Source of the DNA: a virus
Taxonomy: Duplodnaviria > Caudoviricetes
Virus record (IMG/VR): IMGVR_UViG_3300037634_004340
Coordinates: 1 to 50,382 of that record
Direction: 5' to 3' (one strand)
DNA length: 50,382 nucleotides
Under the pieces are notes generated by a model, which saw only the letters and a program-made list of their open reading frames with translations, made no database searches and was not told where the DNA came from. The translations under genes and the position numbers were made by a program. Positions 2,653-38,800 of this stretch are shown piece by piece (position 1 is the first letter of the stretch; every line of letters begins with the position of its first letter).

Positions 2653-2967
2653 TTATCCTAAATATGCTAAAACAGAAGCAGATCCGCTAATACTAAAAGC
2701 AGACCATCTACCAAATATAGTTAAACCTGCTGGAAAAGTTAAAGATGCTGGAATATCATCTCCTGCACCTGATGAATCTCCTGCATATATTGCCCCATTT
2801 ACTGGAGTTAATAAATCTAAAAGAGTATCTTCTATAAAGGTAATTGCTATAAAATCTCCTGATACCGGAGTAATTGTACCTGCTGTGTTTACGAATTGAC
2901 AACCTCCTTGTCCTAAAGAGGCGTTTACAGATTCCTGTACTGTGTGTTTGTGTAGTCCTACCGCCAT
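2653..2967 (-). CDS. Small virion structural protein (hypothetical)
   Basis: 104 aa, beta-rich, AAGGAG RBS, lies in the structural operon. Confidence 0.6.
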   Translation of the reverse strand: MAVGLHKHTVQESVNASLGQGGCQFVNTAGTITPVSGDFIAITFIEDTLLDLLTPVNGAIYAGDSSGAGDDIPASLTFPAGLTIFGRWSAFSISGSASVLAYLG

Positions 2968-3021
2968 AGTTTATCTCCTTTCCGGATGTTCTTTAAGCTC
3001 TTTGGCAAGAGCATGAATGAA

Positions 3022-4933: not shown

Positions 4934-5760
4934 TATGCTTTTCCTTGTTGTGGTGCTTTAGGAGCCATCATACTTGCAAATGAAGCTTGATATTGTCCTG
5001 CTAGCATTTTTAATCTTTCATGAACTCTAGTATAATCAGATGTAATTTTTTGCACTTCTAAAGTTCCTTCTGCTTGTAAATCTTGTACTCTAGCTGTAAA
5101 TTCAGCTACTTTAGCTTGAATTTCTTGAACTCTAGAAGTTAGCATTTCACTATCTTCTTCTGTACTTATCCATGTATTTGTATCAGCCCAATCAGGGGCA
5201 TTCATCAATGGTGAGGCTGGGAGAGTTAACGCTATGCTAGATAAGTTATTTTCTAATGATTTTATACCTGCGTACATAACAACTAAATAATGATATTCTT
5301 CTGGCATATACTGAATAGTTAAGTTATTTTCAGTGATATTATTATCATAACCTATATATTCAACAGAAGCTGTATTACTAACTGTTGCTACAGGTACGAC
5401 TTTAACAACATTTTCTTTTATGTACCATGCTGGATTATGAGCACTTTTATAATGCATACTTGTTGAGTCAGAAATTAAACCAACTAAACTACTTGATATT
5501 CTAGCGCAAGGTAAATCACTCGTACCATTATTTCTAGTAACAGATAATACATCTCCAGTAATAATAACTCCTCCTCCTGTATCAGTACCTACTTTAGAGA
5601 AGAATATTTTCTTATTAGGCATTAAGCCTATTACTTTATTAGTAACATCTTTAACACCATCTTTAAGAAATTGGGCTATCTCGCTCCAATTAGGAGCCGA
5701 TGAACCATCAATGGAAAGACCTGTTAATCCTTCAACTTGTTCTTCAAAAGTTCTTGCCAT
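4933..5760 (-). CDS. Head-tail adaptor/ring (tail tubular A-like) protein
   Basis: QFLKDGVKDV...PAWYI...VEYI...MPEEYHYLVVMYA pattern with a coiled-coil C-terminus; first gene after the capsid cluster. Confidence 0.55.
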   Translation of the reverse strand: MARTFEEQVEGLTGLSIDGSSAPNWSEIAQFLKDGVKDVTNKVIGLMPNKKIFFSKVGTDTGGGVIITGDVLSVTRNNGTSDLPCARISSSLVGLISDSTSMHYKSAHNPAWYIKENVVKVVPVATVSNTASVEYIGYDNNITENNLTIQYMPEEYHYLVVMYAGIKSLENNLSSIALTLPASPLMNAPDWADTNTWISTEEDSEMLTSRVQEIQAKVAEFTARVQDLQAEGTLEVQKITSDYTRVHERLKMLAGQYQASFASMMAPKAPQQGKA

Positions 5761-5770
5761 ATTATCCTAT

Positions 5771-5828
5771 AATAGCGCCTACCCTCTTAGACGAGGAAGT
5801 TTTCCAACTAAGAGGGCAGACTATTATT
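5771..5828 (-). terminator. Long hairpin after the capsid/decoration genes (attenuator or terminator)
   Basis: Minus-strand TCTGCCCTCTTAG pairs with CTAAGAGGGTAGG, with an outer AATAG/CTATT stem. Confidence 0.6.
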
Positions 5829-5845
5829 ATTTAACTGTTAACTAC

Positions 5846-6235
5846 TTAAACTGTTGCTAATGCAACTGAGCCATAATTTACAAGAACTTCACCTGACCCA
5901 ACGCTATCAAAATAAACAGCTATCATTTCATCAGGGGCATTTAATGTAACCTTATTGTTATTGGCTGCATTAAAAGTTCCAGAAGCTAATGTTACTGTAT
6001 GAGCAGCAGTACCAGAAGCACTTGTATTTTTAATTACGACAATTTGTCCAGCGTAATCTTTACCATGCAATCCAGTAATCGCAATTACAACAGATGCATG
6101 ATTTAATTCAATACATCGAACAACAGTACTATCAACTACTGCTGATGCAGTATATGATTGCAGATATGAACTAACATCAGTAATCTTCGCTATTTCACCA
6201 TCAGCTTTGATTTGTCCGTATAATGGATTAGCCAT
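5846..6235 (-). CDS. Putative capsid decoration/auxiliary protein
   Basis: 129 aa, Ala/Val/Thr-rich, directly after the major capsid gene, strong AAGGAG RBS. Confidence 0.5.
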   Translation of the reverse strand: MANPLYGQIKADGEIAKITDVSSYLQSYTASAVVDSTVVRCIELNHASVVIAITGLHGKDYAGQIVVIKNTSASGTAAHTVTLASGTFNAANNNKVTLNAPDEMIAVYFDSVGSGEVLVNYGSVALATV

Positions 6236-6250
6236 AATATACTCCTTTTC

Positions 6251-7792
6251 TTAAGTCCACAGAGCATGAGTTTCTGGACAACAGAACTCCATACCTGCTT
6301 CGGTTAATATTTGATCCACTCTACGATCTACACCACTGTTTTCTAGTGTTTGCACACCAACATAAACTGAAGTGTCTCTATTTAAGCCGTTACCAACTAA
6401 TGGTCTGTAAGCAACATACTTCATGTTAATACCAATCATTTGAACATTAGTGCCATCTAAGTGCACATTACGTGCAACATTCATGTCACCATATATTGTT
6501 GAAATTGTTGTTATATCAACACCAAATACTTTCTTTTTGCCAGTCATAGCAAAATGAGCTTGAGCGTTACCATCATCATGACCTGCTACTGGACTGCCTG
6601 TTGTGGCGCCCCTTCCAGGAACTACCATACCAATATTATTAGCAAAGTATCCAGATAGTTTATGCAACCAATTATAAACTGATGTATTACAAAAGAATAC
6701 AGTTGAAGAAGCATTATTATATCTAGGATCTAACATAGCTGATAAATCATCTAAGAAAGAGTCCTGGCTTTTAGTTGTAGGATCTAAGCTAAAGGTATTA
6801 CCATAAGTAGAGATAAAATCAACTGCGCCTTGAGTTGTATTTATTCCACCAGTTGTAGCTTGAGTTGAAAACAGTAAAGATTGCTCAATATCCCATTTAT
6901 GTTCAATGAGTTTTTCTTTCCATATTCTAGCCCATTCATTAGCTTGATACTTTAGTACTGTAGCACGATCTGTGTTATTCATAACTGCAGATGTTTTAAA
7001 GATCTGAGTTTGACCGTATGAAGTACTGTATGGCTGATCGGCCCATGTTTCAGGATAACCAGTACCTGTACCAAAAGCAGTACCAACAACATAGCATTTG
7101 AAAGGTTCTAAGTCTTCCTGAGCACCTGTTGTTACAGCTACACCAGTTACATCTGCTCCATCAGGAAATCTTAACGCTGCAGAACCTTTTACACAAGTAG
7201 CATTAACTATTGCATAATTAGCAGTATTTAAATCAACCGTGTTTATTTTCCATAACGTATAACCATCCATCAAAGCAGCTGTAAAAGCTCCTCCACCTGG
7301 GGCTTTATTAATTTTAATAATTTGACCAGGAATGAAGAATAAAGGTTGTGTACCAGTTACTCCAGCATAGTATTTGTTAGTTTGACCAACTATATTCTGC
7401 AAGTTACCTTGAGAATTATAATCAGTGTGGAATTTAAATGAATATATACTTGAACCAGCTGTAGCAGCTTCAGCTGAAGTTGCTGCATCGGGATTTGTAG
7501 CCGGTGCTGCTGCTGCAACTTTACTATAAGCTGCCATATAAGCATATCTTTTTGTATATGACGATCTTTTTTCAGTAAATTTGAAAGAAGGGTCATCTGT
7601 TGGTTTTTTAGCTGACATGCTTAAGAACCTAAAGAAAGGATCTTGAGCTAGAGCTAATTCAGACACTTGAGTACCAAAGTTATACTTTCGTCTCAAAGCG
7701 CCTGTATTTAGACCGGTAGTTGTCCCAGTGTGTACGCCAACATCTTGGCCACTATATAGGGAATTACCACCTATTGTATTCATATCAGACAT
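6251..7792 (-). CDS. Major capsid protein (HK97 fold)
   Basis: Portal-scaffold-capsid gene order; motifs PFFRFLS, QTQIFKT, EHKWDIEQSLLF, TQGAVDFI, DQILTEAGME..PETHA. Confidence 0.85.
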   Translation of the reverse strand: MSDMNTIGGNSLYSGQDVGVHTGTTTGLNTGALRRKYNFGTQVSELALAQDPFFRFLSMSAKKPTDDPSFKFTEKRSSYTKRYAYMAAYSKVAAAAPATNPDAATSAEAATAGSSIYSFKFHTDYNSQGNLQNIVGQTNKYYAGVTGTQPLFFIPGQIIKINKAPGGGAFTAALMDGYTLWKINTVDLNTANYAIVNATCVKGSAALRFPDGADVTGVAVTTGAQEDLEPFKCYVVGTAFGTGTGYPETWADQPYSTSYGQTQIFKTSAVMNNTDRATVLKYQANEWARIWKEKLIEHKWDIEQSLLFSTQATTGGINTTQGAVDFISTYGNTFSLDPTTKSQDSFLDDLSAMLDPRYNNASSTVFFCNTSVYNWLHKLSGYFANNIGMVVPGRGATTGSPVAGHDDGNAQAHFAMTGKKKVFGVDITTISTIYGDMNVARNVHLDGTNVQMIGINMKYVAYRPLVGNGLNRDTSVYVGVQTLENSGVDRRVDQILTEAGMEFCCPETHALWT

Positions 7793-15894: not shown

Positions 15895-16057
15895 CCTTAA
15901 CCTGACCGAAATGTCATTAAACTATTTTTTCCTTATGTGTTTATGTATGTATTAGTACCAACATAGACCCAACATTGTATAAGTAATCTTAATTGGTTTA
16001 TGTTACTTGTATAATTTAGCCTGTCTTAAAGAACCCGATAGGAGTATTCCACCAAAA

Positions 16058-16105
16058 GCAAGATAAAGGTGTACATCTCACCCAAGAGGATAAAATGGGT
16101 CTTGC
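16058..16105 (+). ncRNA. Pseudoknotted RNA motif, copy 1
   Basis: GCAAGA/TCTTGC outer stem; inner hairpin with ACCCAA loop complementary to downstream TGGG; similar to 17241-17307. Confidence 0.45.
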
Positions 16106-16207
16106 AAAGATTTAATTTCTAAGGTAAAACCATTCAGACCTTTTGCAACAATGGACAACACTGATTATGTATTGCAAGGACATAATTAGATAGAAAGGAG
16201 CCTTGCT

Positions 16208-16261
16208 ACTCTTAATGCAGCCTGATGACGGTCACAAGCCCGTGTAATGCAGAGTGGGAGT
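16208..16261 (+). ncRNA. Twister self-cleaving ribozyme (P1 type)
   Basis: ACTCT-TAA-TGCA-GCC...ACGGTCACAAGCCCGT...TGCA-GA-GTG-GGAGT matches the twister consensus: UAA cleavage loop, P2 UGCA/UGCA, L4 UCACAAGC, and a T1 pseudoknot with a compensatory CAC/GUG. Confidence 0.85.
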
Positions 16262-16286
16262 TTATATTTAAATAAACGGAGGTATA

Positions 16287-16466
16287 GTGAAAAGAAAGAT
16301 ATTCTTTACACATTATAAACGGAGAACTGGATCTAGCAAGAATTGTAATAATGCTTGGGAACGAGTATTAATACGTGAGAAGGGTTCTAAAATTAGAGCT
16401 ATTAGAAAAGCATTGATAGCTATTCAAAATGTAGGTAAACAAAAACAATTATCTAAAGAGGTATAA
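16287..16466 (+). CDS. Small basic hypothetical protein (59 aa)
   Basis: GGAGGT RBS, GTG start, stop overlaps the next ATG (TAATG); below the ORF-track cutoff. Confidence 0.55.
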   Translation: MKRKIFFTHYKRRTGSSKNCNNAWERVLIREKGSKIRAIRKALIAIQNVGKQKQLSKEV

Positions 16467-16984
16467 TGACTATTTTAACCAATGGCGCAGTAGTAATTAA
16501 AGCTAAAGAACAATCTTTAGTATTTCCTGAAATTGTGCATGATGATCATAATATTTCATTCGATCATATGCATTTTATTCAAACTAATCCTGAATTACTA
16601 TTATTACCTGTAGGAACACGTATTGCTAAACTCTTCAAATTACCTGATGGTATGGAAAGAGTACAAAGTGCTTTATATGGTCCTAGTGCAGGTGATAAAC
16701 CTATTAAGGAAAGTGAAGTAATTTATGAAAAACGTGTAACATGTACTAAATGTCATTCAGCACGTCGAGGTTATAGCAGAATGGTAGATAAACCTACTAG
16801 GCCTGCTAATAACATTGTAGTTATTGGTATAATAGGTAAAGTAGCATTCACTATCTATGGTACTCAAGCCAATGCTGTTAGCCCTAAAGAACCATGGGAC
16901 AGTGGTTGTACTGATTCTGTTGAAGATTATGAATATTCAAAGAATTTTTGGGCAATACATGCTTTAAGTATGCATGAAAATTAA
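16466..16984 (+). CDS. Hypothetical phage protein
   Basis: 172 aa with motif-like LYGPSAGD, SRMV, TIYG, PKEPWD, FWAIHAL and a CTKC insert. Confidence 0.7.
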   Translation: MTILTNGAVVIKAKEQSLVFPEIVHDDHNISFDHMHFIQTNPELLLLPVGTRIAKLFKLPDGMERVQSALYGPSAGDKPIKESEVIYEKRVTCTKCHSARRGYSRMVDKPTRPANNIVVIGIIGKVAFTIYGTQANAVSPKEPWDSGCTDSVEDYEYSKNFWAIHALSMHEN

Positions 16985-17240
16985 ATCTTTCTTTAGGATA
17001 AATGAGACTACAGTGAGCTGTGTGCATGGCACTGACGCAATAATCAGTAGTATATTTAAAATAATTTATCTTTTAGGATTACAAATCAATAAGCTCTTTA
17101 AGAGGTTAGTCGACGCCTTGATGAGAGCTTAATGATTATGTTGCATAATGTCAAGTTTTGCAAACGCATGTTAATTAGAACACCTGCAGAAGGTAAGTAT
17201 AATTTATCGGGGGAGTGCGAGAATCTTTCCCACAATAAGT

Positions 17241-17307
17241 CCTCTTGCTTATAAAAGCGTATGCATCCTACCCAAGGGTCCTATGGTATAGTTGGGGTGG
17301 CGAGAGG
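17241..17307 (+). ncRNA. Pseudoknotted RNA motif, copy 2
   Basis: CCTCTTGC/GCGAGAGG outer stem; ATCCT-ACCCA-AGGGT hairpin whose loop pairs with downstream TGGG. Confidence 0.45.
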
Positions 17308-17688
17308 CAAGAATTGAGAGGTATGGAATATTGCCTATTAAGACTTCTATACAGTGATATATTCTCATAGAACAGTATAGAGCACCTCTCTTTTAGTTTA
17401 ATCGGACTGCGATTAATACGAGATGGATTATAAAAATGTGTTATTGCATTTTATTATTCTTCTTTTTTTGAAAAGTAGGGGTAGACTACACGGCAGGCCA
17501 AGGCTGAGCATGAACATACCCCGAAAATTTATAAATAGGCATAATTAGTATTGTCATTATATGTAGCGCATTGGTATCTCAATGAACATAATGTGAGCCA
17601 ATACATGAGAATTATGCCTAGAATTATTAAAATACAAAGTAGTTTTAACTACATTTTGTCCACTAATATATATAATAAACTGGACATA

Positions 17689-17724
17689 TTAGGTTACTTT
17701 TTAGGTTACTTTTTAGGTTACTTT
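17689..17724. repeat. Three perfect tandem 12-bp repeats TTAGGTTACTTT
   Basis: Read directly at 17689, 17701 and 17713. Confidence 0.95.
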
Positions 17725-17782
17725 TAGAACGTATCCTTTGGGAAAAACAATGAGCTAATGTAAGAGAATTGTGTCCAGATTT

Positions 17783-18163
17783 AGATGAAAGCGTTATAAT
17801 TAAAGAATAATTAACTTTATTTATAATGACTTAGAAACCTGTGTATTGTACGAAGATTGCAAGCAGGTAATCAGTTAGAGTAGTTGTACTCGCTCCGGTT
17901 ATCAAATGATAAAGAGAACGATTAATCAACGAACTGATGTAGTGTGATAAAAAGACTGATAGTCTTCAACCTTATTAGATGTGTTTACGCCAACTCTCTC
18001 TGCGGGCTGCACATACTTTCAATTAACTGTGATGGTTATAAGCAATGTATTACCTCAGCTAGGTGATATAAGTTTAGAGCGACAGCTTAAAGGAAGGATA
18101 AGGAAGCAATTATGAGAGCGCATTTACAAGTATATCAGAGTCTTGTCTAAGATTCTTTCATCT
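17783..18163 (+). ncRNA. Large (~380 nt) multibranch structured RNA candidate
   Basis: Terminal 9-bp stem AGATGAAAG/CTTTCATCT, nested CTTAGA/TCTAAG and many internal helices; no ORF of 60 aa or more. Confidence 0.55.
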
Positions 18164-18197
18164 TTAACTTTAAGTTGTCAATGTTATTAAAATAAAT

Positions 18198-18297
18198 GGA
18201 GCTTTCATAGAGGAATCATAGAGTTGTTGATTTTCAATTCTACCCAGGATAAAGATGTGTTGATTTTCATATCTCCTATGCTCAAGGTTGAAAGTCC
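18198..18297 (+). ncRNA. Twin-hairpin RNA with identical UUGAUUUU loops
   Basis: TAGAGTTG-TTGATTTT-CAATTCTA and AGATGTG-TTGATTTT-CATATCT, enclosed by CATAG/CTATG and CTTTCA/TGAAAG. Confidence 0.6.
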
Positions 18298-18588
18298 TAT
18301 ATAATTAACGATTTGAAATATGTATACATTAAGTTGAGGGATTACGAGCCCAAGTATACAAAACTTGCTAGCATGCCAAGGGAGAGACTTATGAAATCAC
18401 CGGTGGGTGAGATCCAAGCATGCTAAACATTAACACCATTCTAATGGTGTTCGGCTATGGAGGAAAGTGAGGTGTTCTAACGTATTTCGCTACCTAGGAT
18501 AATAAAAATTCTTTAATGAGGTATATTACCCAGAAAAAGAACCTTAAACCCTCCTCGCTGTGATTTTATATAAAAAAAAAGAGGTGTA

Positions 18589-18714
18589 ATGATAGAATAT
18601 TATATAGCAATTATGATTGGATTTATAGCAGGTTATTTTGTAGCCTGTTTAATGATGATAGCAAAAGGAAATACAAAAATAGATATGGATGTCCATAGCT
18701 GGAGAAATAAATGA
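18589..18714 (+). CDS. Small single-pass membrane protein (41 aa)
   Basis: GAGGTG RBS; MIEYYIAIMIGFIAGYFVACLMMIAK hydrophobic helix. Confidence 0.6.
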   Translation: MIEYYIAIMIGFIAGYFVACLMMIAKGNTKIDMDVHSWRNK

Positions 18715-19254: not shown

Positions 19255-19453
19255 GAGGATCATGCGATAATTATCATAATTGCAATAGAGTCATACCTCC
19301 TCTGTTGTTACTTACAATGATCCTCTCCTATTCTTTAGGAAGCGAAATGAGGTAATTTATAAGGCAGATTCAGCAATTTAACATTGGAATTTTCATTTCC
19401 TCCAAACTTTGAGTCTGCCTTATTATTAACGGAATAAAAACGAAAGAAGAATT

Positions 19454-21370
19454 ATGAATGATATTATATCAATTTATAAACAAGGGCAAAATATACAATT
19501 GCCTAGTAATTTAGCTAATTTTAGAAATGTTACTATTTCAGATAGAGATAGAAGAGAGTATATATGTCAAAATCTAGGAATTATATTAAATTATTATTTA
19601 GGTTGGCATACAAGTACTGCATCTTTTGAAGCCGGAATTATTGCAACAGGTGACATGAATCAGTATCAATTAGAAAAATATAATAGTATTGCACCTATTC
19701 GTATTACTCCTTCATTTAGATTGGCCCCGGGTGAAGCAAAAAGAGTAGCTCAAAGATTAAAGTATGTACCAATGGTATGGTCAAAAGTAAGACATGGTTG
19801 GTATAGTAACTGTGATAGATATATAAAAGCTAATGAAGATCTTATTGTTAAAGATACTCAAACTCCTAGTGTTATAATTAATAAATATAAATTTAGAGGA
19901 AGTAGAAATAACTCCTTTAGAAATAATAATATAGATGTTAATACTGAGTTTTGGAATCTTCAAAGTGAACATTGGGAACAATCTACACAGAGAAGTGAAC
20001 AAAGTAGAATTGAAAATACTTATTATCATAGTAATAGAGATAGAGCATATGAGGATCTTTATTTAAGAGATTTTATTAATCCAAATACAGGAAATAATAA
20101 TTGGAGATATAGTTGGGATAGAAATTCATCTTCAGAATCATCACTTATAAACTTACAACATTATACAATTCAAAGTTTTTGTGCTGATGTGTTCAATTTA
20201 CTTAAAGAATCATTAACAATTAGAAGAAATACTCCTGAAATAGAATATAATGATGAAGAAGATTATACTCAAATGAGAGAGTTTCTTCTTAATCAAATAT
20301 CTGAAATTGATAGATGTAACACAATTGTTGAAAATATAGCAAGTATAAGAGAAGTGATATTAACTAAGTATCGAGGTTCTATTAAAATGTATATGAAATT
20401 TATATTAGAAGAACCACATATTGATATTAGTCATCCTTCTGGTAGCAGTGAGTATTCTTCTGTAACTAGGAATATAAAAGATATTAATGGTAATATTTCT
20501 GATTTCATAGGAGTTATTCAATTTGAATTAAGTCTTATAAATAATAAATTTAGAAGAAGAAATGTTATATTTTGTGGATATAATGATAATTCTCATGTAA
20601 ATCCTGGATTATATAATACAGCTAATCGTGATTCAAGAATAGCTAGAGTTATTAGAGGTATATTTAATTGTTTTACTTTAGATAGTCTCCAAAATAATAC
20701 TTGTCTTAGTGAATATGAACATGATATTATGTCTTCTATTAAAAGATTAGACTATTTAACAATGCTTATTAATATTGTTAGCTGGTATACTGTTTATGTA
20801 CCAGGTAGAACTAATCCTTATAGACATCCAAGACAATTATTCTTTGGTATTCCAAATGATATTCCTGAATGGTATAAAAGTCAGCATGATAGTAGTGTTG
20901 CAGCATGCGAAGCTCTTGTTATGACTGAATATGGTACAGGAGAAGCACGAAATGATAGTGAAACAGATATACTTAGACGTGTTACTGATGATAATTTAAA
21001 AGCATTATTGTTAAATCATTGTCATAATTGTTTTCATAATACTGATTGTCGTGTTAATTCTTATGCAAAAGGGATTGTTTATGGTGACAATGAAGTTGCT
21101 TATCAAGAAGCATTAATAGCACGTGAAGGGGCAATACAAATGCAAGAAGCGCTTGATCCTGGTGTAGCAGCTAGAGAGATTGAAGAAGAATCTGAATTAA
21201 GTCACAGTGAAGTTCAAGAGATTATTGAAGAAATTGTTGATACAGATCCTAGGCCTGCACATAGAAGAGTTGAACAGGTTATAGAATATGATGATCATGT
21301 AGTTCCGATTGAAACTGATCAAGAACGTACAATGAGATTAATGTCCGCCTGGAGTCAGGCAGAAAGGTAA
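19454..21370 (+). CDS. Large protein with a putative divergent E2 (UBC-like) domain and a Cys-rich region
   Basis: Beta-strands, then HVNP...NTCLSEY (Cys417), helices and SWY..Y...TNPY; distal C...CHNC..C; first gene of the JAB/E1/Ubl operon. The E2 call rests mainly on context. Confidence 0.45.
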   Translation: MNDIISIYKQGQNIQLPSNLANFRNVTISDRDRREYICQNLGIILNYYLGWHTSTASFEAGIIATGDMNQYQLEKYNSIAPIRITPSFRLAPGEAKRVAQRLKYVPMVWSKVRHGWYSNCDRYIKANEDLIVKDTQTPSVIINKYKFRGSRNNSFRNNNIDVNTEFWNLQSEHWEQSTQRSEQSRIENTYYHSNRDRAYEDLYLRDFINPNTGNNNWRYSWDRNSSSESSLINLQHYTIQSFCADVFNLLKESLTIRRNTPEIEYNDEEDYTQMREFLLNQISEIDRCNTIVENIASIREVILTKYRGSIKMYMKFILEEPHIDISHPSGSSEYSSVTRNIKDINGNISDFIGVIQFELSLINNKFRRRNVIFCGYNDNSHVNPGLYNTANRDSRIARVIRGIFNCFTLDSLQNNTCLSEYEHDIMSSIKRLDYLTMLINIVSWYTVYVPGRTNPYRHPRQLFFGIPNDIPEWYKSQHDSSVAACEALVMTEYGTGEARNDSETDILRRVTDDNLKALLLNHCHNCFHNTDCRVNSYAKGIVYGDNEVAYQEALIAREGAIQMQEALDPGVAAREIEEESELSHSEVQEIIEEIVDTDPRPAHRRVEQVIEYDDHVVPIETDQERTMRLMSAWSQAER

Positions 21371-21373
21371 GAT

Positions 21374-22312
21374 ATGGATGATAAATTCATAATGGCCCAA
21401 AAAGACTGGGATAAAATTATAGCTTATTCAAAAATGAGTTATGACAAATGGAAAACTGAAATCGGCGGCATGTGTGTCGCCCTTTTCGATGAAAAAAATA
21501 AAATTATGGTTATTTCAGATCCTGTAATTGGTAAACAAGAAGTATCTAGTACTCTTTGTACATTAGATAAGGAATGGCTTGCTGATTATTATGTAGAAAT
21601 GGCTGTAAAATATGGTACAAAAGTTAGATTTGTTTGGTGGCATAGTCATCACACAATGGGTGTAAGTTGGAGTGGTACTGATACTGATACAATGCAAGAG
21701 TTTAATCAAGGTGATTACTCTATGTCTTTAGTAGTTAATTTAGCAGAAAATCATACATTTAGAATAAGCTGGTGGAAACCTACATCTGGATATATTGATA
21801 CTAAATTAAAAGTATTAAAACCTGAATTTCAAGTAACTAAAGAAATGCAAGGAATTTTTGATGAATTAGTTACAAGACCAGCAAAAAGTATTACTAAAAT
21901 TAATACTAATATTTATAATAATGGTTGGAGTAATGCAGGATGGAGAAATCAATATAAACAGCCAGGTAATTATGGTCCAGGTTATGTTGATGCTCAGTTG
22001 ATGGATAGAACACAGACTCTTCAAGAGAAGTTTTGCGATACAATGGAAAAACTTTTAGATGAGGCGTTTACATATCAAAAGAAATGGCCTGATTTTGAGG
22101 AAGAATGGAAAGAAATTATAATAGATGCTGGAAAGCATGATATAGTTATTGAAGAATTTCCTAAATCAGAATTTGTTGAACTTACAGTAAAAGGAGAATT
22201 TCCTGATGCAACAGACTACTTTGAAAGCCCTGACCCTGAACTCTTTCTCACAAGAGGATGTACCGATGGATATGGGAATCCGCTACAGGAAAATCTGTTC
22301 AGAAATAGATAA
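21374..22312 (+). CDS. JAB/MPN+ (JAMM) metalloisopeptidase
   Basis: Intact EIGG...WWHSHHTMGVSWSGTD (E, HxH, S, D) motif. Confidence 0.9.
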   Translation: MDDKFIMAQKDWDKIIAYSKMSYDKWKTEIGGMCVALFDEKNKIMVISDPVIGKQEVSSTLCTLDKEWLADYYVEMAVKYGTKVRFVWWHSHHTMGVSWSGTDTDTMQEFNQGDYSMSLVVNLAENHTFRISWWKPTSGYIDTKLKVLKPEFQVTKEMQGIFDELVTRPAKSITKINTNIYNNGWSNAGWRNQYKQPGNYGPGYVDAQLMDRTQTLQEKFCDTMEKLLDEAFTYQKKWPDFEEEWKEIIIDAGKHDIVIEEFPKSEFVELTVKGEFPDATDYFESPDPELFLTRGCTDGYGNPLQENLFRNR

Positions 22313-22934
22313 ACATCATTACAGCATATTTGGTTGCGGAGCTATAGGTAGTTCCGCAGCTGTATGTCTTGCTAAACATAATGCTAGGCATTTTTATCTT
22401 TATGATAATGATACAGTTAGTCCAGAAAATATAGGTATTAGTATGTTTAGAGAATTTGACATAGGTGAATCTAAAGTTGAATCTCTGAAGGAAATACTTG
22501 AAATAGGTGGAACTAATAGTAAAATACAAGTACAACCTCATAAAGAGTGGTTAGATCAAGATTCCGCCTTTACAAGTTATAAAGATGGACTTAATATTGG
22601 TATTTTATGTTTTGATAATATGTATTCTCGTAAAGAGATTGCAGGTATATGTTTTAGAGATAAGTTTAATTATATAATAGATGCACGTATGGGTCGTGAA
22701 CAGATTCAGTTGTATACTGTTAAAAATATTAAAACTTATGAAAAATATTGGTATCCTGATTTTCAAGCAAGTAGTGATACTTGTGAAGAAAAAGGAACAC
22801 CAGATGTTAGTATGATTTCCGGATCACTTATAACATCACAAATCAGGAAAATTGTTAATAAACAACCTTATCCTGAAGAAGTTTGCTTTCACATTCCTAG
22901 CATGGCGCTAGAATGTAATACCATGGTAAAATAA
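22206..22934 (+). CDS. ThiF/E1-like adenylyltransferase (likely start 22266)
   Basis: GCGAIGS nucleotide loop, YDNDTV..ENI, K, CFDN...R and IIDARMG; candidate thioester Cys in DTCEEK. Confidence 0.92.
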   Translation: MQQTTLKALTLNSFSQEDVPMDMGIRYRKICSEIDKHHYSIFGCGAIGSSAAVCLAKHNARHFYLYDNDTVSPENIGISMFREFDIGESKVESLKEILEIGGTNSKIQVQPHKEWLDQDSAFTSYKDGLNIGILCFDNMYSRKEIAGICFRDKFNYIIDARMGREQIQLYTVKNIKTYEKYWYPDFQASSDTCEEKGTPDVSMISGSLITSQIRKIVNKQPYPEEVCFHIPSMALECNTMVK

Positions 22935-22946
22935 CAAGGAGGGCTT

Positions 22947-23153
22947 ATGCCTAATATACACTTAATGCACAACTCTGATAGCTTTGATCCAACAGATACA
23001 GAAGCTGTAACAGTTGGTGCTCTTAAAACAGAGCTTGGTGTACCTTCCACTTCTAGAGTTAACGTGAATACTGCAGTTGCGCAAGATTCCACCACATTGA
23101 ATGATGGTGATATTGTTGCAGTAGTTACAAAAGACAAAAAAGGTGGAAGATAG
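22947..23153 (+). CDS. Ubiquitin-like (beta-grasp) protein ending GG-R
   Basis: 68 aa; TVGALK helix, VNVN, LNDGDIVAVV, C-terminal KKGGR; AAGGAGG RBS. Confidence 0.85.
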   Translation: MPNIHLMHNSDSFDPTDTEAVTVGALKTELGVPSTSRVNVNTAVAQDSTTLNDGDIVAVVTKDKKGGR

Positions 23154-23167
23154 TTAACCCTATCATT

Positions 23168-23198
23168 AAAGTCCTCGGAGATTATTTCGGGGACTTTT
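23168..23198 (+). terminator. Intrinsic terminator closing the ubiquitin-like operon
   Basis: AAAGTCCTCGGA-gattat-TTCGGGGACTTT followed by T. Confidence 0.75.
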
Positions 23199-23212
23199 AA
23201 TTAAAGGACAAT

Positions 23213-23449
23213 ATGTTAGAAATTAAAAAAGAATATGAAAAAACAATAGAATTTCCGATTAGAGGCAGAATATATAATGTTATTACTAATCAAGGTAATA
23301 TTTATAGAAGATTATATTTTGTAGGTTATAGTAATGGGGTTGCAAAACCTCAATATATTTTTAAAGAATTAAACGGAACTAGAGTAAGTATAAACCCATC
23401 TTATCAAGTAGAAATGTGTGAAACTGACATACCTGATAATATTGTATAA
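23213..23449 (+). CDS. Hypothetical protein
   Basis: 78-aa beta-rich ORF with AAGGA RBS. Confidence 0.6.
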   Translation: MLEIKKEYEKTIEFPIRGRIYNVITNQGNIYRRLYFVGYSNGVAKPQYIFKELNGTRVSINPSYQVEMCETDIPDNIV

Positions 23450-32217: not shown

Positions 32218-32874
32218 TTACTTATGCACTTTCTTTAAAAATTCTTTAGGTATCCCACCTGCTATTCCATAGTTATATACCAGCATATCACTATCATCAT
32301 AAAGAGATTTGCCTCTTAAATCGCTAATTTTTTCCATCTTCTCAAATTTACTTTTAGGGATTTCAAATTCTAAAACAGTCACCTTTTTTCCCTTTTTCCC
32401 CCATATTCTTGCTTCAGCAAAATTATTACTAACCCAAGCAGTTCCTTTGGATAGATCATCCTTTCCTGTTGAAGGATTAAATCTACTATAATCTGAGCCT
32501 ACAAACTTACCTTCTTTGACCATTTTGCCCGAATGCCACTTATCTACCCCTCTATATAAAGTCACCATTTCTTCACCAGCTTCTTTAGCGGCCTTTAAAG
32601 CTCTTTTACCAGCAACAAACTGTCCAATAATAGGAATAGCTGAAGCTCCTGACAATACAGCTTCTCCAAACTCTCCTTCAGCAGCATATAATAATGCATC
32701 CGCTGCATCAGCCACATTCCCATATCCAGGGGTAAAACCAGCAGCCATTAAAGCTGTATGAAGACCTTCAGTGCTAGTATCACTCTCTTGCTTAAAAAGA
32801 TTAGCAATAGTTTTGTCTGGCTCTGCAACTTGTAGCATATTATTAAAAGCTTCTGTGTCTATTTTATCTGGCAT
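32218..32874 (-). CDS. Polymorphic-toxin-like protein: pre-toxin TG domain plus ADP-ribosyltransferase-like C-terminus
   Basis: GFTPGYGNVADAADALLYAAEG...SAIPIIG (PT-TG-like), then TLYRG...WVS...A..W...VLEFEIP (ART R-S strands). Confidence 0.6.
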   Translation of the reverse strand: MPDKIDTEAFNNMLQVAEPDKTIANLFKQESDTSTEGLHTALMAAGFTPGYGNVADAADALLYAAEGEFGEAVLSGASAIPIIGQFVAGKRALKAAKEAGEEMVTLYRGVDKWHSGKMVKEGKFVGSDYSRFNPSTGKDDLSKGTAWVSNNFAEARIWGKKGKKVTVLEFEIPKSKFEKMEKISDLRGKSLYDDSDMLVYNYGIAGGIPKEFLKKVHK

Positions 32875-35800
32875 TATTTAGGGCAAGCTCTTGCAGCTTT
32901 ATTAAACTCATTAAAAGAATCTCTTACTGACCCTGAAGATTTCTGACTCTCTTTTATATCACGGCCTTGCTTTATAAACTTACGCAGCATACTTAATCTA
33001 TATTCACTTAATAATGCTAATGGTTTTATTGAAGCTCCACCAGATGAACCTGCCATTAATGCTAATTCAGGGCTCATGCTATAACCACTTATCTCAGAAA
33101 CACCTTCTTCGCCTATTCCTTTAGTTATTACTTTACCAAGACCCATCTCTGTTAACTTCTGACGAACACCTTCTTGCATAAGATGATAAGATATAGGATC
33201 TAAATAGTTATTTTGCATCATTAACTGATTAGTATAAGATAACGCTGTCTCTAGCTTTTTATAGTCAGGGCCTTTATGATTTAATAGCTTTGTATTTATA
33301 AGATTTCTAAAAAACTCTATATTAGTATCATATTCAGGACCCATTCCAAAGACATCTTTATTAAACACGCCTTTTTCAGTATTTATAGACTCATATCTAT
33401 CCCAAGTATTTACAAGTTTACGACTATATCCAGGAACATTATTAATAATACCGAGTATACCCTGATCATTTGTTGGAATTAATCCAAAATTACCGTCAAA
33501 GAAATTACTATAAGCAGAATAACGCTTAGTTAAGTGCTCTATTGTAAGTTTTAAATTGTTTTTTTCTTGATGATTTGTCTCATTATTAAACTTATCTAGT
33601 AAAAACTTAACAACTCTTTTAAACCTACCAGACGCTTTAGAACTAACAGCTATGGGATTACCGTTATATATACCTATTGTAGTCTCAGCTTTAGTAGGCA
33701 TTGCATATTCTAGTAAAAAAGGCATACCATGATCCCCATAACCTTGATTTAACGCTAAAGCTAAATACTCTTCAACCTCCATAGGATCTTTTTTAGTACT
33801 CATCCTTTTTTTCATCATCTCAGGATTTATCTGAGTCATCTCTTGATATTCAGAAGTTGTGCCCGCACTAAAGTATTCACTATATTCTTGAGCAGTTTCA
33901 GCCTTTAAAGCTGTAACTTCTTTATAGAAATTACTTACATCGCCTGCAGTTGTAAACTTTTGACTTAACTCATGAAGAGTATACCATTGAACGGTCCCTT
34001 CAAGCATATCTTTATCTCTAGAAATATCTACAAACTTTATACCCTCTAAATACTTAGCATCACCTGTTTTTAAGTATTTATCCGGGAGATAGCCTTTTAA
34101 TACAGCTTCTTTTTCTTTAATTAATTCAATTAAAGATTCTATTCTGGCTTTTCTTAAATTCTCAGGAATCTCTTTATTTCTAGCTATATTTCCTATTTGT
34201 CTTTTCCAATATTTAATTATCTTAACATCTGAGTTTACCTTACCTGTTAATTGAGGTATGATTTCACGCATACGATCAGTTAAATTGCCTTCTCCAAATG
34301 ACTCTTTAGAGTAGATTATTTCATTAGCGACTGCCTGCATTTCTTTAAAGCCTTCACCCTGGAGTAAGATATTCCCTTTTCCATTATTACCTAAAGGATC
34401 GTTATGCATTATCTCTCTATAAATTCTTTCTACAACAGAGCCGTGATCACCTCCAGAAGCAGCAGTCATTATACCTTTATCCATAGCACCTTGCACTAAA
34501 GGAGACTCGTTCCACCATCTATACATATATTTGCCAGACGATTTATTGTCACCCCTCTCTCTCATTAACGCTGCATCATATTCCTCTAAAGCCTTCCCAT
34601 ATAACTTATCAGCTGTCTTGTTATATTTAGCCCTAAGTTTTTGATGAGGTTTAAACATTGATTTTACTAATTCATTGTCACCATGTTTAGCTTTTACGTT
34701 TTTATAAATTGTACTCGTCATGTCCTCTAAATGTCCAAAATAAGCATGAGTTATAGACATTATATCTTCATATTTTGCAGGACTACCTTGACCTGTATTA
34801 TCATATACTTCAGTACTTAAAGTTAATAATCTGCCATGCTCAGACATTAAAGTTTTTATAATAGTTCTTTCTTCAGGAGTTAAATCGTATTCTCCTGTAG
34901 GATTATCTTCAGTTTTAGGACCAAATTTTCTAAACAATCTAATTCTACTATTTTGAGGACCCTTAACACTTTGCGCCGTCTTTTGCGCAGATAAACTTGG
35001 AACATCGTCTTTAGATATAGATTTATCCATTATAGGGAAGAGATAATCATTTCTCCAATCCATCATCTTATTTACAATTCTTTGATCGACGCCTTTCCAA
35101 TAATCAATAATAAGCTGGGATTCTAAGGCAGATCTTTCAAAAAAGCTAGCATTGTCATAGTCTACAGATACAGTAAACTCATTCTCTCCATGTGTGTATT
35201 TTAATAAATCTTTACGCCCAGTTGTTTCATTAGTAGTGCCCAGCTCAGATAAATGGTTTACTAGCCTAACAGTTTTCTGTACAAGTCCTATGCCTTTTTT
35301 AAGCACTCTATTATTACCATCAAATGTATTCCAACCAGCATTTTCTCTCCCAGAATTAGATAAACTAAGTTCAGGAACCTTTCCTTCATAATTACCTGTA
35401 TTTACAGTATTTACCCAGTGCCGTTGTACTCTTTGATTGTGTTCCCAGGTACCTCTATTCATACCCCAAAAGAAGTCAATTTCATCTACATCGTAATCAC
35501 CTTCAAATATATTAAGAACATCAAAGTCATTAGCTATAGCTGTGTTTCCATGGTCTTTACCTAGGAATCCTTTAAGTCTAAGTATAGCTAAATCATTAGG
35601 CGTAGTCCTTGGATAACGTGTAGTCATTATACCTACAGCTAAGTCTTCCCCTAAGGCTTTATTTAATACTTCAATTTCTGAATGCAATAAGCCTAAGTTT
35701 CCATCAATAGTAGTTTTCTCCCAGAAATCTCTAAAGCTTAACTTAAGTCTATCGCCTTGCTTTTTCAGCAGAGCATCGTATTCGTTATACATTTTCTCAA

Positions 35801-38800
35801 GTCTTTGCTTTAAAGGGAATACTCCACCATTATTATCCACGATCCTAAGCTCTAAGTCTTTGGTTTTTCCTGAGAAATCAATCGAACCTCTAGCTGTAAA
35901 TTCAGGAAGCATTATATCGCCATGGAATATTTTAGTGTCTTCTTTCTCACCCGTACGAACAGTAGGCTTTAAATTTCTAAATTCAAAATTCTGTTTTAAT
36001 ACAGACTTACCACCATAAGCATTACCACCCATAATAGAAGGAGGGCTCATAATAGGATCTAGGAAGTGAGATTTCACCGCATCTATTAATACGCCTTCGC
36101 CTAACATCCTTACATCTCCACCCATAGCAGCTATTTGCATATGATGTCCTAAGTTCTCAAGACCTTCAGGGCTATTCTGCATATCTTCTAGCGTTGTACG
36201 AGGATCTATTTTTTTAAGTTTTAGTAAAGCTAATCTTTTATATAAACCATCTTCAACAAACTTAGCCATTGTACCATCTACTAATAATTTGTCTAATCTG
36301 TTTTTATAGAAAGCGTTATAATATTCACCAGCCTCAATAGATTCCATATAATTAGGAATAGAGTATGATTGCCTAGCTGGCATTTCAGCTTCAGGTATAA
36401 TGCTAATACCTACTTTATCTTTAGGTATAGTTCTAATAAACCGATCTATTTCCGAACCCTCTATTTTAATCATTTGATCAACAGTTTTATCTATATATCT
36501 AGGTCGATCCTGATTAGAGCTCTTTTCCCACTCCGCCTGAGATATAGCTGATTTCATCTTATCTGCACTGCGAGTTATAATCATATCTAAATTTTTACTT
36601 TTGCCAAATATCTCAGATTGAATATGAGGATCATATACAAACACTGTTTTAGCATACATCATATCATTTCCTTCACCATTAGATGATACGATAGGCTTAA
36701 AGACAGCAGCTCCAGTAGTTCCATAATACAGATTTAAAAAGTCAGCATAATCTTTAGAAATAAACGATATACTGTCATAACTAGACTCATCATTTCTGTC
36801 GCCAAGCATTTTCTTCCAACTAGTGCCTCTAAACTTTAATGCTTCCTCATTTCTTGTTGAAACTTTAGCATGATCTTTATCATTCCAAACTATATAGCCT
36901 AAATCTCTTTTTTCAAAACTTCTTAATAAATTCATATCAGAAACATTAGTTAAGCTTTTTCTTAATGCAACTAATAAATCAGCATCCATACGTCTAAACG
37001 ATGGAGTATGAAAAAGACTAACTCTCTTACTCATTTCAGCTAACTCTGGGCTATTCATCGTTAATGTTTCTAAGAATCGTCCTTGTACTTTACTGACAAG
37101 CATATCATTTATAATGATAGATCTCATTGCATCTTCATGTACAGCGCTCCAAGTTTTAGTCTTCTCGAGATTATCCATCATCTCTTTTAATCGACTGCCT
37201 TGTGGATTCTTCATATCTTTTTTATAATACGGTTTAAATATCTTTTCTCTATAAAGTTCAGCAACTTCTTTAAAACTAGACTCAGGAACACCAATTGGAT
37301 TTTTAGCATTACCCATACGAATAATAGCCATCCCTTTATGATCTCCAGTAGCTTCATCCCAAGTATATCTTTTTATAGTATCATAAAAATGTTTTTGTTG
37401 AGCCTCAGCAAACTGTTTACCTCGACGGTCCGTAGATACTGATGAATCATAATCTAATACATTTAGGGAAGCAGATTTTACCTTCCCTCCTTTAAAGTAA
37501 TGTGTAAAAGATTCGCCATTAACAAAGACATAAGGGATACCAGATTCATCTAGAAGATCCGTAAATGGACTTCTCTGCTGGTTTTTCATCTTAGACACAG
37601 GATCACCCCGGTTTACACTTAACTCAGGTTTAGAGATCGTTCCCTTTCTTAATATAAATATTTTTTGAACATCTCTTGAAGCTCTTATATATTCAGCTTG
37701 ATAGTTTGGATTAGATACAACTTCACTACCTGTGACTTTATTTCCACCTATAGTGAACTCCATTTGCTCTATAAGTCTTTCGTGTGGATTTTCATTTACA
37801 TCTTTAGTAGTTGGGTTATATAATGCTTTTTCTATTAAATCGTTTTGCTCTACAGCTTCTTGATATTTACTACCCATTCCTCGTTCTAATGGAAAATACT
37901 TCTCAAAGAAACCTTGTTGTGTCATAGCACTACTATGGTCTTTAAATTTAGATCGGACGTCTAAATCAATATCCGCTGAACTTATTTTATTCTCTATATC
38001 CGACATATATACGCCAGATTTTTGTAACCATTCCTGTAATTCTGATCTAACTTCAGCTTTTAGCTCTCCAGTATCAGTAAGGAAATCTTTATTTATAATA
38101 TATTCAAGAGTATTTTGTCTTTTATTAGTCGTTATAAGACCTTTACTTATCATATTAAAAAGTAAATCGTTAGGCCTTTCAGCATTTTCTACCCATTGAA
38201 CCAAACCATGTTTTAATGGATCTGCTCCATTTAATGTAGCAATAAAGTCTATTAAAGTTTCTTGAGCCTGTTGTTGCTGTTTTGCTTCAGATTTTCTTAT
38301 AATTGTATCTAAACCAATAGCTTCTTGTTTACTAACCCGAATACCTCTGCGTGTAACTCTATCAGACACAGTCGTAGTTATAGCCCCATCAAAGTCCATT
38401 ATAGATTCATCTAAATTTATAAATGACTTACCCTCATAAGTGGCTCTTTTTATTAAATTATATATATAATCATTATATCTTTTAGCTAGTTTATAATGAG
38501 TTGTCCTCCCGTCTAGAATAGATAAATCTATTTTTCTAACAGAGAAACCGGTACCACCATCAACTGTAGTACTGTAATTTGCAAATGGAAGTTCTAACCC
38601 AGATAAATCTGCAAGAATAGCGACATCATTATTAGTTATTTCTGTATTTTTTATAATTTCAGATGTAATTCTTTGAGTAATATTAGCCCTAAACATATCT
38701 AATATCTCTTTTTGAGTATTTATCTTATTGGCGTTTAAATATTCATTAAGTTCATGTATTTTTTCTACTTTAATTGTAACTTTATCTGTGGTATTTACAT

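Follow-up and report, generated by a model that had tools for sequence, protein, structure and literature searches.

The locus analyzed here raises the question of whether a virus can carry its own ubiquitin-like (Ubl) protein-tagging cascade and, if so, to what end. The cassette originates from a 50-kb IMG/VR record of an uncultured marine phage and comprises four packed plus-strand genes at positions 19454-23153 of the window (the whole 50,382-nucleotide stretch that was analyzed), followed by a stable hairpin (Table 1). An earlier note had described these genes as an E2-like protein, a JAB protease, an E1 and a Ubl, carried by the virus itself; the source record is indeed viral. So far, conjugation by CBASS Cap2, Bil and Bub has been elucidated as a means by which hosts resist phages, and in the cassette a defense-type Ubl toolkit is phage-borne and conserved beside phage replication genes. 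On balance, we consider it probable that the cassette equips the phage with a Ubl conjugation cascade whose E2-like carrier is new. This would be a case of viruses turning Ubl tagging to their own ends with a carrier that databases do not recognize.

Table 1. Features of the cassette, in window coordinates
Feature	Position	Strand	Description
E2L	19454..21370	+	ORF, 638 aa
JAB/JAMM metalloprotease	21374..22312	+	ORF, 312 aa
ThiF-type E1-like adenylating enzyme (predicted)	22266..22934	+	222 aa, single domain
Ubl, ThiS/MoaD-type beta-grasp (predicted)	22947..23153	+	ORF, 68 aa, ends KKGG-R
Hairpin 3' of Ubl gene	23165..23201	+	likely intrinsic terminator, short U-tract

The four genes occupy 3.7 kb with intergenic spacings of +3, -47 and +12 nt, in keeping with the tight packing noted earlier; the 47-nt overlap is that of the E1 gene with the JAB gene. 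The third reading frame is open from 22206 to 22934, and the likely E1 start is the ATG at 22266, which is preceded by AGAGGA at 7 nt on its 5' side and gives the 222-aa product. Given the base composition, chance alone would produce open frames of 222, 312 and 638 codons 3e-4, 4e-7 and 3e-17 times in the window, respectively. A 68-codon frame alone is unremarkable (~18 expected in the window), and the Ubl gene is preceded by a strong AAGGAGG ribosome-binding site. Of the closing terminator that had been proposed, the stable hairpin was recovered (-18.7 kcal/mol, z -3.57, with 1 of 200 shuffles as good), but the U-tract within the sequence that follows it, UUUUAAUU, is weak and a simple consensus terminator scan made no call at this hairpin; an intrinsic terminator remains a plausible reading.

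Family match and C-terminal Gly-Gly identify the 68-aa protein as a predicted ThiS/MoaD-type Ubl, as had been claimed. Pfam ThiS is its sole family match (25.7 bits, cut-off 22.5), and the Gly-Gly end is invariant in all 14 Ubls compared, ten of which end exactly in GG, three in GG plus K or R and one in GG plus QA. The window Ubl has one extra residue (R) after the diglycine, and the occurrence of one or two residues past GG in 4 of the 14 would explain the need for an adjacent JAB. The 222-aa protein is assigned as a ThiF/MoeB/E1-like adenylating enzyme based upon Pfam ThiF (1.6e-19, 70.5 bits, cut-off 28.1) and its Gly-rich loop GCGAIGS (residues 23-29), which is invariant in 12/12 sequences. 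Cys173 is also invariant and falls opposite the Cys in the ALTCVEAGV segment of MoeB; an alignment to PDB MoeB 1jw9_B was obtained (1.1e-6), and the PADLOC matches to E1-E2 (1.7e-11) and BilD (5.2e-6) were both partial. The E1 is closest in sequence to ThiF and MoeB, which activate sulfur carriers, and a weak match to the SAMP-activating E1 (1e-3) was found in NCBIfam, where all matches fell far under the equivalog cut-offs. ThiF proper (TIGR02356; 59 bits vs. a cut-off of 275) was rejected, as was MoeB proper (NF004281; 49 bits vs. 266, with no CxxC and no sulfur-gene neighbors). As the earlier note had observed for the paired zinc motifs, the 222 residues contain no CxxC, and they contain no rhodanese domain.

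The JAB retains the full JAMM motif that had been reported as intact, E29...H90-x-H92-x7-S100-x2-D103, which is invariant in 15/15 homologs. Its catalytic domain covers approximately residues 1-140, and the C-terminal 170 residues are conserved and belong to no known family. Matches to PADLOC JAB (3.1e-4) and to PDB 6fjv (Rpn11-like; 6.9e-4, the alignment spanning the JAMM motif) were sub-threshold, and Pfam Prok-JAB fell below its curated threshold (0.073, 13.4 bits vs. a cut-off of 25). With scores above or near curated thresholds and functional motifs invariant across homologs, the Ubl, E1 and JAB identities are assigned on sequence. The cassette genes evolve under purifying selection, with dN/dS values against close relatives of 0.14 for the JAB, 0.27 for the E1, 0.22 for the Ubl and 0.24 for the E2-like part of E2L.

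E2L, whose family ranges from 500 to 700 aa, begins with a helical N-terminal region (residues 1-261) and continues into an alpha+beta, E2/RWD-like domain (~270-485) bearing SH381-x2-P384 and C417, after which come an invariant four-Cys cluster (C485, C523, C526 and C532), an acidic linker modeled with low confidence and, at the C terminus, a conserved M-x2-W tail. C417, the candidate E2 cysteine singled out in the earlier note, is invariant in 37/37 family members that are otherwise 15-40% identical, and is one of five invariant cysteines in all. It is preceded at 12-33 residues by an [HF]P[YF][IL] motif (Pro in 33/37), a spacing that far exceeds that in E2s. The domain was modeled with a pLDDT of 91.1 and a pTM of 0.87 (pLDDT 75 for the whole protein) and runs through a helix, a beta-meander, the [HF]P[YF][IL] loop, Cys417, helices and an invariant N-P loop, an arrangement of motif, cysteine and loop that we take to resemble the E2 active-site signature. 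Secondary-structure order suggests that Cys417 lies at the position of the E2 catalytic Cys.

The window E2L matched no sequence model in Pfam, PHROG, PADLOC, NCBIfam or PDB. Pfam gave none of the 37 members an E2-family match (UQ_con, Prok-E2) at E up to 10, PADLOC gave none a match to E2, Cap2 or BilB, and neither a PDB profile search nor the ESM Atlas linked E2L to any E2 family. Judged by these searches, E2L is an undescribed, virus-only protein family that databases do not recognize. Structure prediction, which had been suggested as a check together with Foldseek, yielded the confident E2-like domain model, but Foldseek found no match in the PDB at E <= 1e-3 for either the domain or the whole-protein model. 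In the VIA-wide fold search with the domain, 22 of the 50 matches listed were titled E2, UBC or UEV, with 107-163 residues aligned; the pdb_via search likewise listed 22 of 50. Bacterial Cap2 was among the matches listed (residues 7-153 in the E2L-domain search, Z 5.4; overall Z 5.2-5.5), and the whole-protein model gave the same picture. The best Z among the matches listed was 6.6, never reaching 8, and belonged to the LTN1 and KNL1 domains (Z 6.0-6.6), which we take to be RWD-type and non-catalytic; unrelated folds, namely CapZ (Z 5.9), SPLUNC1/BPI-like and JHBP, tied with the E2 rows. The earlier proposal that the 638-aa protein is an E2 is thus favored by the topology of the model but finds no sequence match; with E2/UEV/RWD structural matches that are weak and tied with unrelated folds, we grade an E2 role as no more than likely.

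Nineteen related loci were fetched (14 from IMG/VR and five from metagenomes, some probably the same contigs in two collections), and the JAB and E1 genes directly follow the E2L gene in 19/19; in L006, L007 and L013, which gave no phmmer match to the window E2L, the E2L gene was placed by a tblastn match only. The Ubl was found in 17/19, being absent only from L010 and L018, where contig ends cut it off. It is the last gene of the cassette in the window clade, and 11/12 loci of the distant clade are arranged Ubl-E2L-JAB-E1, the twelfth being cut. In this comparison of synteny, a check that had been proposed earlier, the four genes keep together in every related locus and are co-inherited, with E2L identity among the divergent phages down to 15-20%. 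The cassette sits in a replication/recombination block, always directly upstream of a Sak4-like gene, with Sak4-like recombination and primase-helicase genes as its neighbors; of the early-region placement given before, the block itself is observed and the early timing is read from position. This suggests a fixed part of the replication block rather than a variable accessory island. The phages that bear the cassette are lytic-looking. Pattern-limited scanning of the genomes of 185,579 bacterial and archaeal species returned no relative of the cassette, and therefore no sign of exchange with host defense islands.

In the conjugation cascade that we favor, the Ubl would be made with an extra C-terminal residue (GG-R), which the JAB would trim, exposing Gly-Gly; the JAB may additionally reverse conjugates. 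The small E1, which probably forms homodimers as MoeB and UBA5 do, would adenylate the terminal glycine of the Ubl with ATP and may carry it as a thioester on Cys173, from where the tag would move on to Cys417 in the E2-like domain of E2L. The helical N-terminal region and the C-terminal four-Cys (probably zinc) module of E2L would pick the target, and the tag would finally be attached to a lysine in a protein of the phage or of the host. We infer every chemical step of this scheme, as well as the E2 role of E2L. If E2L is a true E2, it would widen the known sequence range of the fold and would constitute a natural fusion of an E2 with a specificity module. Since the window tag ends in K-K-G-G, trypsin should leave a di-Gly remnant as it does for ubiquitin, and standard K-epsilon-GG proteomics could reveal the targets of the cassette directly.

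Conjugation might instead proceed through the E1 itself, as in the SAMP/UbaA or TtuB/TtuC type, with E2L serving as an RWD/UEV-like non-catalytic adaptor, a Cys-cluster E3-like specificity factor or the main substrate rather than as a thioester carrier. Archaeal conjugation of the SAMP type is not known to require an E2, so the role of carrier need not fall to E2L, and the minimal single-domain E1 with its weak match to the SAMP-activating enzyme, the lack of any sequence tie between E2L and E2 families, and the non-catalytic RWD type that we assign to the top fold rows listed (LTN1 and KNL1) are consistent with this. We nevertheless regard it as unlikely in view of the retention of Cys417 in every member of so divergent a family, between a motif and an N-P loop that resemble an E2 active site; the four other invariant cysteines suffice for a full set of four ligands, so that Cys417 is not needed there. 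According to Iyer, Burroughs and Aravind 2006 (PMC1779556), RWD domains lack this Cys. A sulfur-carrier pathway appears more doubtful still: the E1 would adenylate the Ubl, a host persulfide source would give the thiocarboxylate, the JAB would only mature the carrier, and the Cys-rich E2L would use this sulfur for the thiolation of a small molecule, a cofactor or a nucleic acid, possibly yielding a phage DNA/tRNA modification made in the replication module. The Ubl does match only ThiS and the E1 best matches ThiF and MoeB, E2L has its five invariant cysteines, the cassette lies among DNA-metabolism genes, and JAB-matured sulfur carriers exist (PMC1779556). Against this, the 43 window ORFs of at least 60 aa on coding strands that the search covered yielded no match to a rhodanese, cysteine desulfurase, PP-loop ATPase or radical-SAM family, nor to any thiamine, MoCo or cysteine-synthesis family, as the earlier note had stated of the last three. 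The E1 has no rhodanese fusion and scores far too low against ThiF/MoeB equivalogs (e.g., 59 vs. 275 bits), E2L matches no nucleotide-binding or PP-loop family, and E2/UEV/RWD chains, not sulfurtransferases, dominate its fold matches listed. As described in PMC1779556, E1+JAB operons with E2-like genes never occur with rhodanese.

The same chemistry could also be directed in a Bil-like manner at the structural proteins of rival phages, in inter-phage warfare or superinfection exclusion, instead of aiding the replication of the phage itself. The roles that the earlier note had offered, namely takeover, counter-defense, decoy or attack on rival phages, are conjectural. Bil systems attach their Ubl to phage tail proteins (PMC11601596), and the distant clade has the BilABCD gene order. 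We give this only a slim chance, given a cassette fixed in the replication block in 19/19 loci of divergent phages, no relative in the pattern-limited scans of bacterial and archaeal genomes, and neither E2L nor the Ubl matching in PADLOC. Returning to the favored cascade, its target may, as a guess from the constant position directly upstream of Sak4-like/primase-helicase genes, be a protein of DNA replication, of recombination or of host DNA metabolism. The broadest form of this reading, which we hold tentatively and as somewhat improbable, is a virus-only conjugation system fixed in the replication of a broad group of uncultured lytic phages, tagging a host or phage DNA-replication/recombination protein and built on a new E2-like class, each chain of which would unite a diverged UBC-like core with a helical region for targeting and with a zinc module. 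If it is true, protein tagging would be a step of phage replication rather than defense. The JAB+ThiF pairs of crAss-like gut phages, found at the same genomic position, may be an analogous system.

Among known systems, SAMP/UbaA/HvJAMM1 and Thermus TtuB/TtuC combine a GG-ended ThiS/MoaD-type Ubl with a minimal E1 resembling MoeB and with a JAMM protease, all of which have counterparts in the cassette. Neither system is known to have an E2, and the same proteins double in sulfur transfer; the cassette, in contrast, always adds a conserved Cys-bearing protein and has no sulfur partner among the 43 ORFs. With Bub and Type II CBASS Cap2/Cap3 the cassette shares a minimal E1, probably of the homodimer type, and a JAB that would cleave a pre-Ubl, and bacterial E2-like domains are highly diverged (PMC11601596). 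Bub (6E) has fused Ubl-E2 and JAB-E1, a catalytic Ser in its E2 and the BubE protease, and Cap2, in which an E2 is fused to an E1, has a cyclase rather than a Ubl as the protein that it conjugates (PMC11601596). Neither architecture is present in the four genes, and both were rejected as identities. The lambda/T1 proteins I and K resemble the cassette in pairing a phage-encoded Ubl with a conserved C-terminal Gly beside a JAB peptidase; as described in PMC1779556, they lie in the tail-assembly cluster, are accompanied by neither an E1 nor an E2-like gene, and are viewed as a matter of processing alone.

PRTRC was likewise rejected, PRTRC_ThiF scoring 27 bits against a cut-off of 144.75 and PRTRC_A 13.7 against 101.8 (JAB of L004), with no match for E2L or the Ubl (NCBIfam TIGR03734-03742); the cassette also differs in having no ParB gene and a JAB extended C-terminally rather than by an N-terminal JAB-N. 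Operon class 6d of Iyer, Burroughs and Aravind 2006 (PMC1779556) is similar in that its Ubl is small and carries a C-terminal Gly, its JAB and E1 are encoded by separate genes, it occurs on mobile DNA, and its E2-like protein has a conserved Cys but not the classical HPN His; it has a largely alpha-helical protein, and E2L has a helical region fused ahead of its E2-like domain. Bil, in types I and II, consists of BilA (Ubl), BilB (E2), BilC (JAB) and BilD (E1) (PMC11601596). Membership in Bil, to which the earlier note had likened the set, is not borne out, the E1 being a single 222-aa domain unlike the tandem-domain BilD of the same source; the PADLOC BilD match covers positions 214-355 of 453. 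E2L (500-700 aa) matches neither a BilB nor an E2 model, the Ubl consists of one ThiS-like domain of about 67-68 aa, and the cassette lies in a phage replication block, not in bacterial defense islands. The likeness to Bil lies in the same four functions (the E2 role of E2L being predicted), a JAB that can mature the tag, an expected path from E1 to E2 to lysine and, in the distant phage clade, the order Ubl, E2-like, JAB, E1, which is that of BilA-D (PMC11601596).

Judged from sequence comparison, the cassette is a real, conserved and selected four-gene Ubl system in an uncultured phage lineage. All four ORFs claimed by the earlier note, encoding a candidate E2-like carrier (E2L), a JAMM metalloprotease (JAB), a ThiF-type enzyme (E1) and a ubiquitin-like protein (Ubl), are present as described, with intergenic spacings of +3, -47 and +12 nt along the cassette. 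For the E1 gene the likeliest start is ATG 22266, with an AGAGGA ribosome-binding site upstream, which yields a 222-aa product and an overlap with the JAB gene. At the composition of the window, frames of 222-638 codons are beyond chance expectation, whereas the 68-codon frame is within it; the Ubl gene call therefore depends on its family match and on conservation. The proposed closing terminator was borne out in part: a stable hairpin (-18.7 kcal/mol, z -3.57) lies 3' of the Ubl gene and is followed by UUUUAAUU, but it was left uncalled by a consensus terminator scan. The 199-nt gap 5' of the cassette contains two inverted repeats, read by eye, namely AGAGGATCAT...ATGATCCTCT and, immediately upstream of the E2L start, AAGGCAGATTCA...TGAGTCTGCCTT; these may represent a terminator and a regulatory site. 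After the terminator-like hairpin lies a 78-aa gene with no family match. Its counterpart, of 72-103 aa in L002, L003 and L019-L022 (related loci fetched for comparison), is always located between the Ubl and Sak4 genes, and the gene is conserved solely within the window's own clade.

Table. Coordinates of cassette features, other window features and the crAss-like regions compared
Feature	Sequence	Coordinates	Strand
Strand-switch region	window	16000-18600	
Sak4-like annealing protein, primase-helicase, Holliday-junction resolvase, Cas4-type exonuclease	window	about 16.4-29.2 kb	+ (plus-strand block)
Gap 5' of cassette	window	19255-19453	
E2L gene (638 aa)	window	19454-21370	+
E2L residues 560-638	window	21130-21370	+
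JAB gene (312 aa)	window	21374-22312	+
E1 gene	window	22266-22934	+
Ubl gene (68 aa)	window	22947-23153	+
Hairpin 3' of Ubl gene	window	23165-23201	
78-aa gene	window	23213-23449	
2833-aa ORF	window	32874-41375	-
Large terminase, P22-like portal, SU10-like major capsid protein, lectin-type fibre proteins	window		-
crAss JAB+ThiF region	L016 (MT774392.1, cr128_1)	1614-6370	
crAss JAB+ThiF region	L017 (MT774387.1, cr111_1)	1785-6331	

Three of the four parts, E1, JAB and Ubl, are securely identified. E1 matched Pfam ThiF (1.6e-19), MoeB in the PDB (1.1e-6) and the E1 halves of Cap2-type PADLOC models (up to 1.7e-11), and every score against NCBIfam equivalog models was far under the cut-off. Both a CxxC motif and a rhodanese domain are absent from E1, in agreement with the earlier description of an enzyme devoid of paired CxxC zinc motifs. 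In the PDB alignment, Cys173 of E1 pairs with the Cys of the MoeB segment ALTCVEAGV, which we take to be the crossover-loop residue through which ThiF forms its acyl-disulfide. Cys173 is invariant in 12/12 relatives in one comparison, and Cys173 together with a Gly loop in 15/15 of the locus set. The protease, previously called intact, has the full motif E29...H90-x-H92-x7-S100-x2-D103, likewise invariant (15/15); the motif region aligned with the Caldiarchaeum Rpn11-like protein 6fjv (PDB, 6.9e-4), and the Pfam score was under threshold. No family match was found for the last 170 residues of JAB. This C-terminal extension (residues about 140-312) is conserved, terminates in an aromatic G-W/Y motif in the distant clade, and could serve as a docking domain for E1 or E2L. 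Ubl scored above the Pfam ThiS cut-off and ends in KKGG-R, matching the beta-grasp protein ending in GG-R that had been reported; among 14 Ubl C-termini, ten end exactly in GG, three in GG plus K or R, and one in GG plus QA. Values of dN/dS versus close relatives were 0.14 for JAB, 0.27 for E1 and 0.22 for Ubl.

The remaining protein, E2L, belongs to a new family and is a probable, though undemonstrated, E2-like carrier. Searches of Pfam, PHROGs, PADLOC, NCBIfam and PDB sequences turned up no match to it, the PADLOC defence-system models matched nothing in its family, and a search of the ESM Atlas gave no usable match. Five relatives were found among 5.8 billion proteins by a word-indexed search and 40 among 1.84 billion representatives by a profile search, 13 of these below 1e-30. 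No Pfam family was above threshold in the 21 relatives scanned, the sole match listed being DUF5721 in one of them, P0037 (20.1 bits versus a cut-off of 25). Pattern-limited scans, whose negative outcome does not prove absence, detected no relative in one genome from each of 185,579 prokaryote species; to the extent surveyed, the family is viral.

Eight residues are invariant across 37 E2L family members (C417, W444, P455, G465, C485, C523, C526 and C532). An [HF]P[YF][IL] motif is located 12-33 residues upstream of C417, with its Pro present in 33/37, while [LFM][SDG] directly follows C417 and a T/S-N-P loop occurs further downstream. The E2 signature is HPN...C-L-D, which the motif set around C417 resembles, with a longer spacer. 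The four distal Cys would make up a complete metal-ligand set, thus leaving C417 free. At the C-terminal end of E2L, a conserved M-x2-W motif stands behind an acidic low-confidence linker. It belongs to a longer tail motif, R-x-M-x-L-M-x2-W-x-Q-A-E-R, which is kept even in relatives of 15-20% identity and looks like a tethered docking peptide; in some relatives the linker carries an extra C-x-H-G...C-x2-C insert. Versus close relatives, dN/dS was 0.39 for the N-terminal region, 0.24 for the E2-like part (from 3 changes in 239 codons), 0.52 for the Cys cluster and 0.89 for the tail.

The full-length E2L model had a pLDDT of 75, and the model of residues 262-560 (37 sequences) a pLDDT of 91.1 and a pTM of 0.87, with elements in the order long helix, beta-meander, HP-motif loop, extra helix, C417 loop and helices. 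Foldseek searches of the PDB with both models gave nothing at E 1e-3 or better. VIA-align comparison of the domain model with 48,161 representative chains reached Z 6.6 at best; 22 of the 50 matches listed were titled E2, UBC or UEV, the Cap2 N-terminal part was listed too, and the top rows were chains of LTN1, KNL1 and FANCL, presumably RWD-type domains. A second-look list, headed by CapZ (Z 5.9), also had E2 or UEV entries as 22/50 of the matches listed, along with SPLUNC1/BPI-like and JHBP folds. According to VIA-align guidance, a Z under 8 possibly reflects just a common arrangement of elements, and because all values fall below this, an E2-like fold is suggestive, not established. In BFVD, nine viral proteins matched the model at E 1e-3 or better, seven of them without a name and the named ones uncharacterised; weaker rows included a phage 'Type II CBASS E2 domain' protein (0.038) and a Marseillevirus E2 (0.13). 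The proposal that the 638-aa protein is an E2 gains from the invariant C417, the [HF]P[YF][IL] motif and the prominence of E2/UEV rows, but a Z of at most 6.6 and the lack of any sequence match leave it short of confirmation. Separately, residues 28-264 showed a weak similarity to Pol I-family helical regions (Z 5.4-5.6), regarded as generic resemblance between helical proteins.

Two IMG/VR loci of the window's own clade share the order E2L-JAB-E1-Ubl, followed by the small 72-103-aa gene and Sak4. Twelve more encode a distant E2L of roughly 520 aa (15-22% identity) in the order Ubl-E2L-JAB-E1-Sak4; in L006, L007 and L013, E2L was missed by phmmer with the window protein and located by the tblastn hit through which the locus had been retrieved, and L010 starts within E2L, its Ubl position lying off the contig. 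Five metagenome loci are consistent with this picture, three of them being probable duplicates of IMG/VR contigs and one, L018, stopping within E1.

GenBank phages, searched at the DNA and protein levels with the cassette and two E2L proteins, gave no match; E1 alone led to crAss-like phages and Dulem virus 41. In crAss-like gut phages (Steigviridae), a JAB-type 'metalloprotease' (Pfam Prok-JAB, 6e-5) is directly followed by a ThiF E1 (1.1e-17). The pair sits in the replication block between primase and UDG, downstream of two further genes, whose products are 201-211 aa and 426-435 aa long, the latter of unknown family and bearing an invariant H-S-H...C-x-G-x-G-P, a layout that parallels the window cassette. 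The larger protein has 168 relatives, 32 of which were aligned (A8); it was rejected as an E2L relative at the sequence level, with an hhalign probability of 0.5% for A8 versus the E2L family alignment (A4). The 201-aa protein showed no sign of being a Ubl: the Ubl of locus L004 gave no BLASTP alignment with it, and Pfam detected no Ubl.

The window record is complete in appearance (50,382 bases; CheckV completeness of 92% in IMG/VR). A search of 50,697 deposited phages with its terminase returned a single distant match (25% identity), placing the phage in an uncultured lineage. The sign of GC-skew flips at each border of the plus-strand block, and no tRNA genes were found in the window. Between the packaging and replication blocks, the strand-switch region has short ORFs only (40-58 aa listed), contains a change of GC-skew sign, and is probably an early promoter or origin region. 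Neither PHROGs nor Pfam matched the 2833-aa ORF of the structural block, and the neighbours of this ORF (931, 740, 488 and 453 aa) are mostly unmatched too. None of the 43 window ORFs scanned fell into a recognised DNA or RNA polymerase family; polymerase functions may come from host enzymes or be hidden inside the large unmatched ORFs.

Of the readings that give each of the four conserved parts a role, a conjugation cascade is the simplest. JAB would expose the Gly-Gly end of Ubl, E1 would adenylate it, perhaps forming a thioester on C173, and Ubl would then be handed to C417 of E2L, with modules flanking the E2L core choosing the target lysine. The constant position of the cassette just upstream of Sak4-like and primase-helicase genes suggests that it serves a replication and recombination programme, which is only a guess. 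SAMP-like conjugation that dispenses with an E2, E2L being an adaptor or substrate, is unlikely and is kept because the best structure rows for E2L are non-catalytic RWD domains. A sulfur-carrier route for Ubl and E1 is quite unlikely, weakened as it is by the nature of E2L and by the lack of a sulfur-transfer gene among the 43 window ORFs scanned; the earlier note had likewise seen no thiamine, MoCo or cysteine-synthesis partners. A Bil-like role against competitors is very unlikely. The tested E1 architecture (Pfam, PADLOC) differs from that of the Bil E1, as presented in PMC11601596, which speaks against membership of the Bil systems that the earlier note named for comparison.

Among known systems, Iyer, Burroughs and Aravind 2006 (PMC1779556) defined five bacterial E1+JAB operon classes, of which class 6d combines JAB and E1 with a small Ubl, one helical protein and an E2-like protein that has the Cys but lacks the HPN His. 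The window cassette stays below the cut-offs of the NCBIfam PRTRC models. Literature searches confined to openly available articles found no description of this cassette. The cassette would work like the known Ubl-E2-JAB-E1 systems, yet by the available tests is a member of none.
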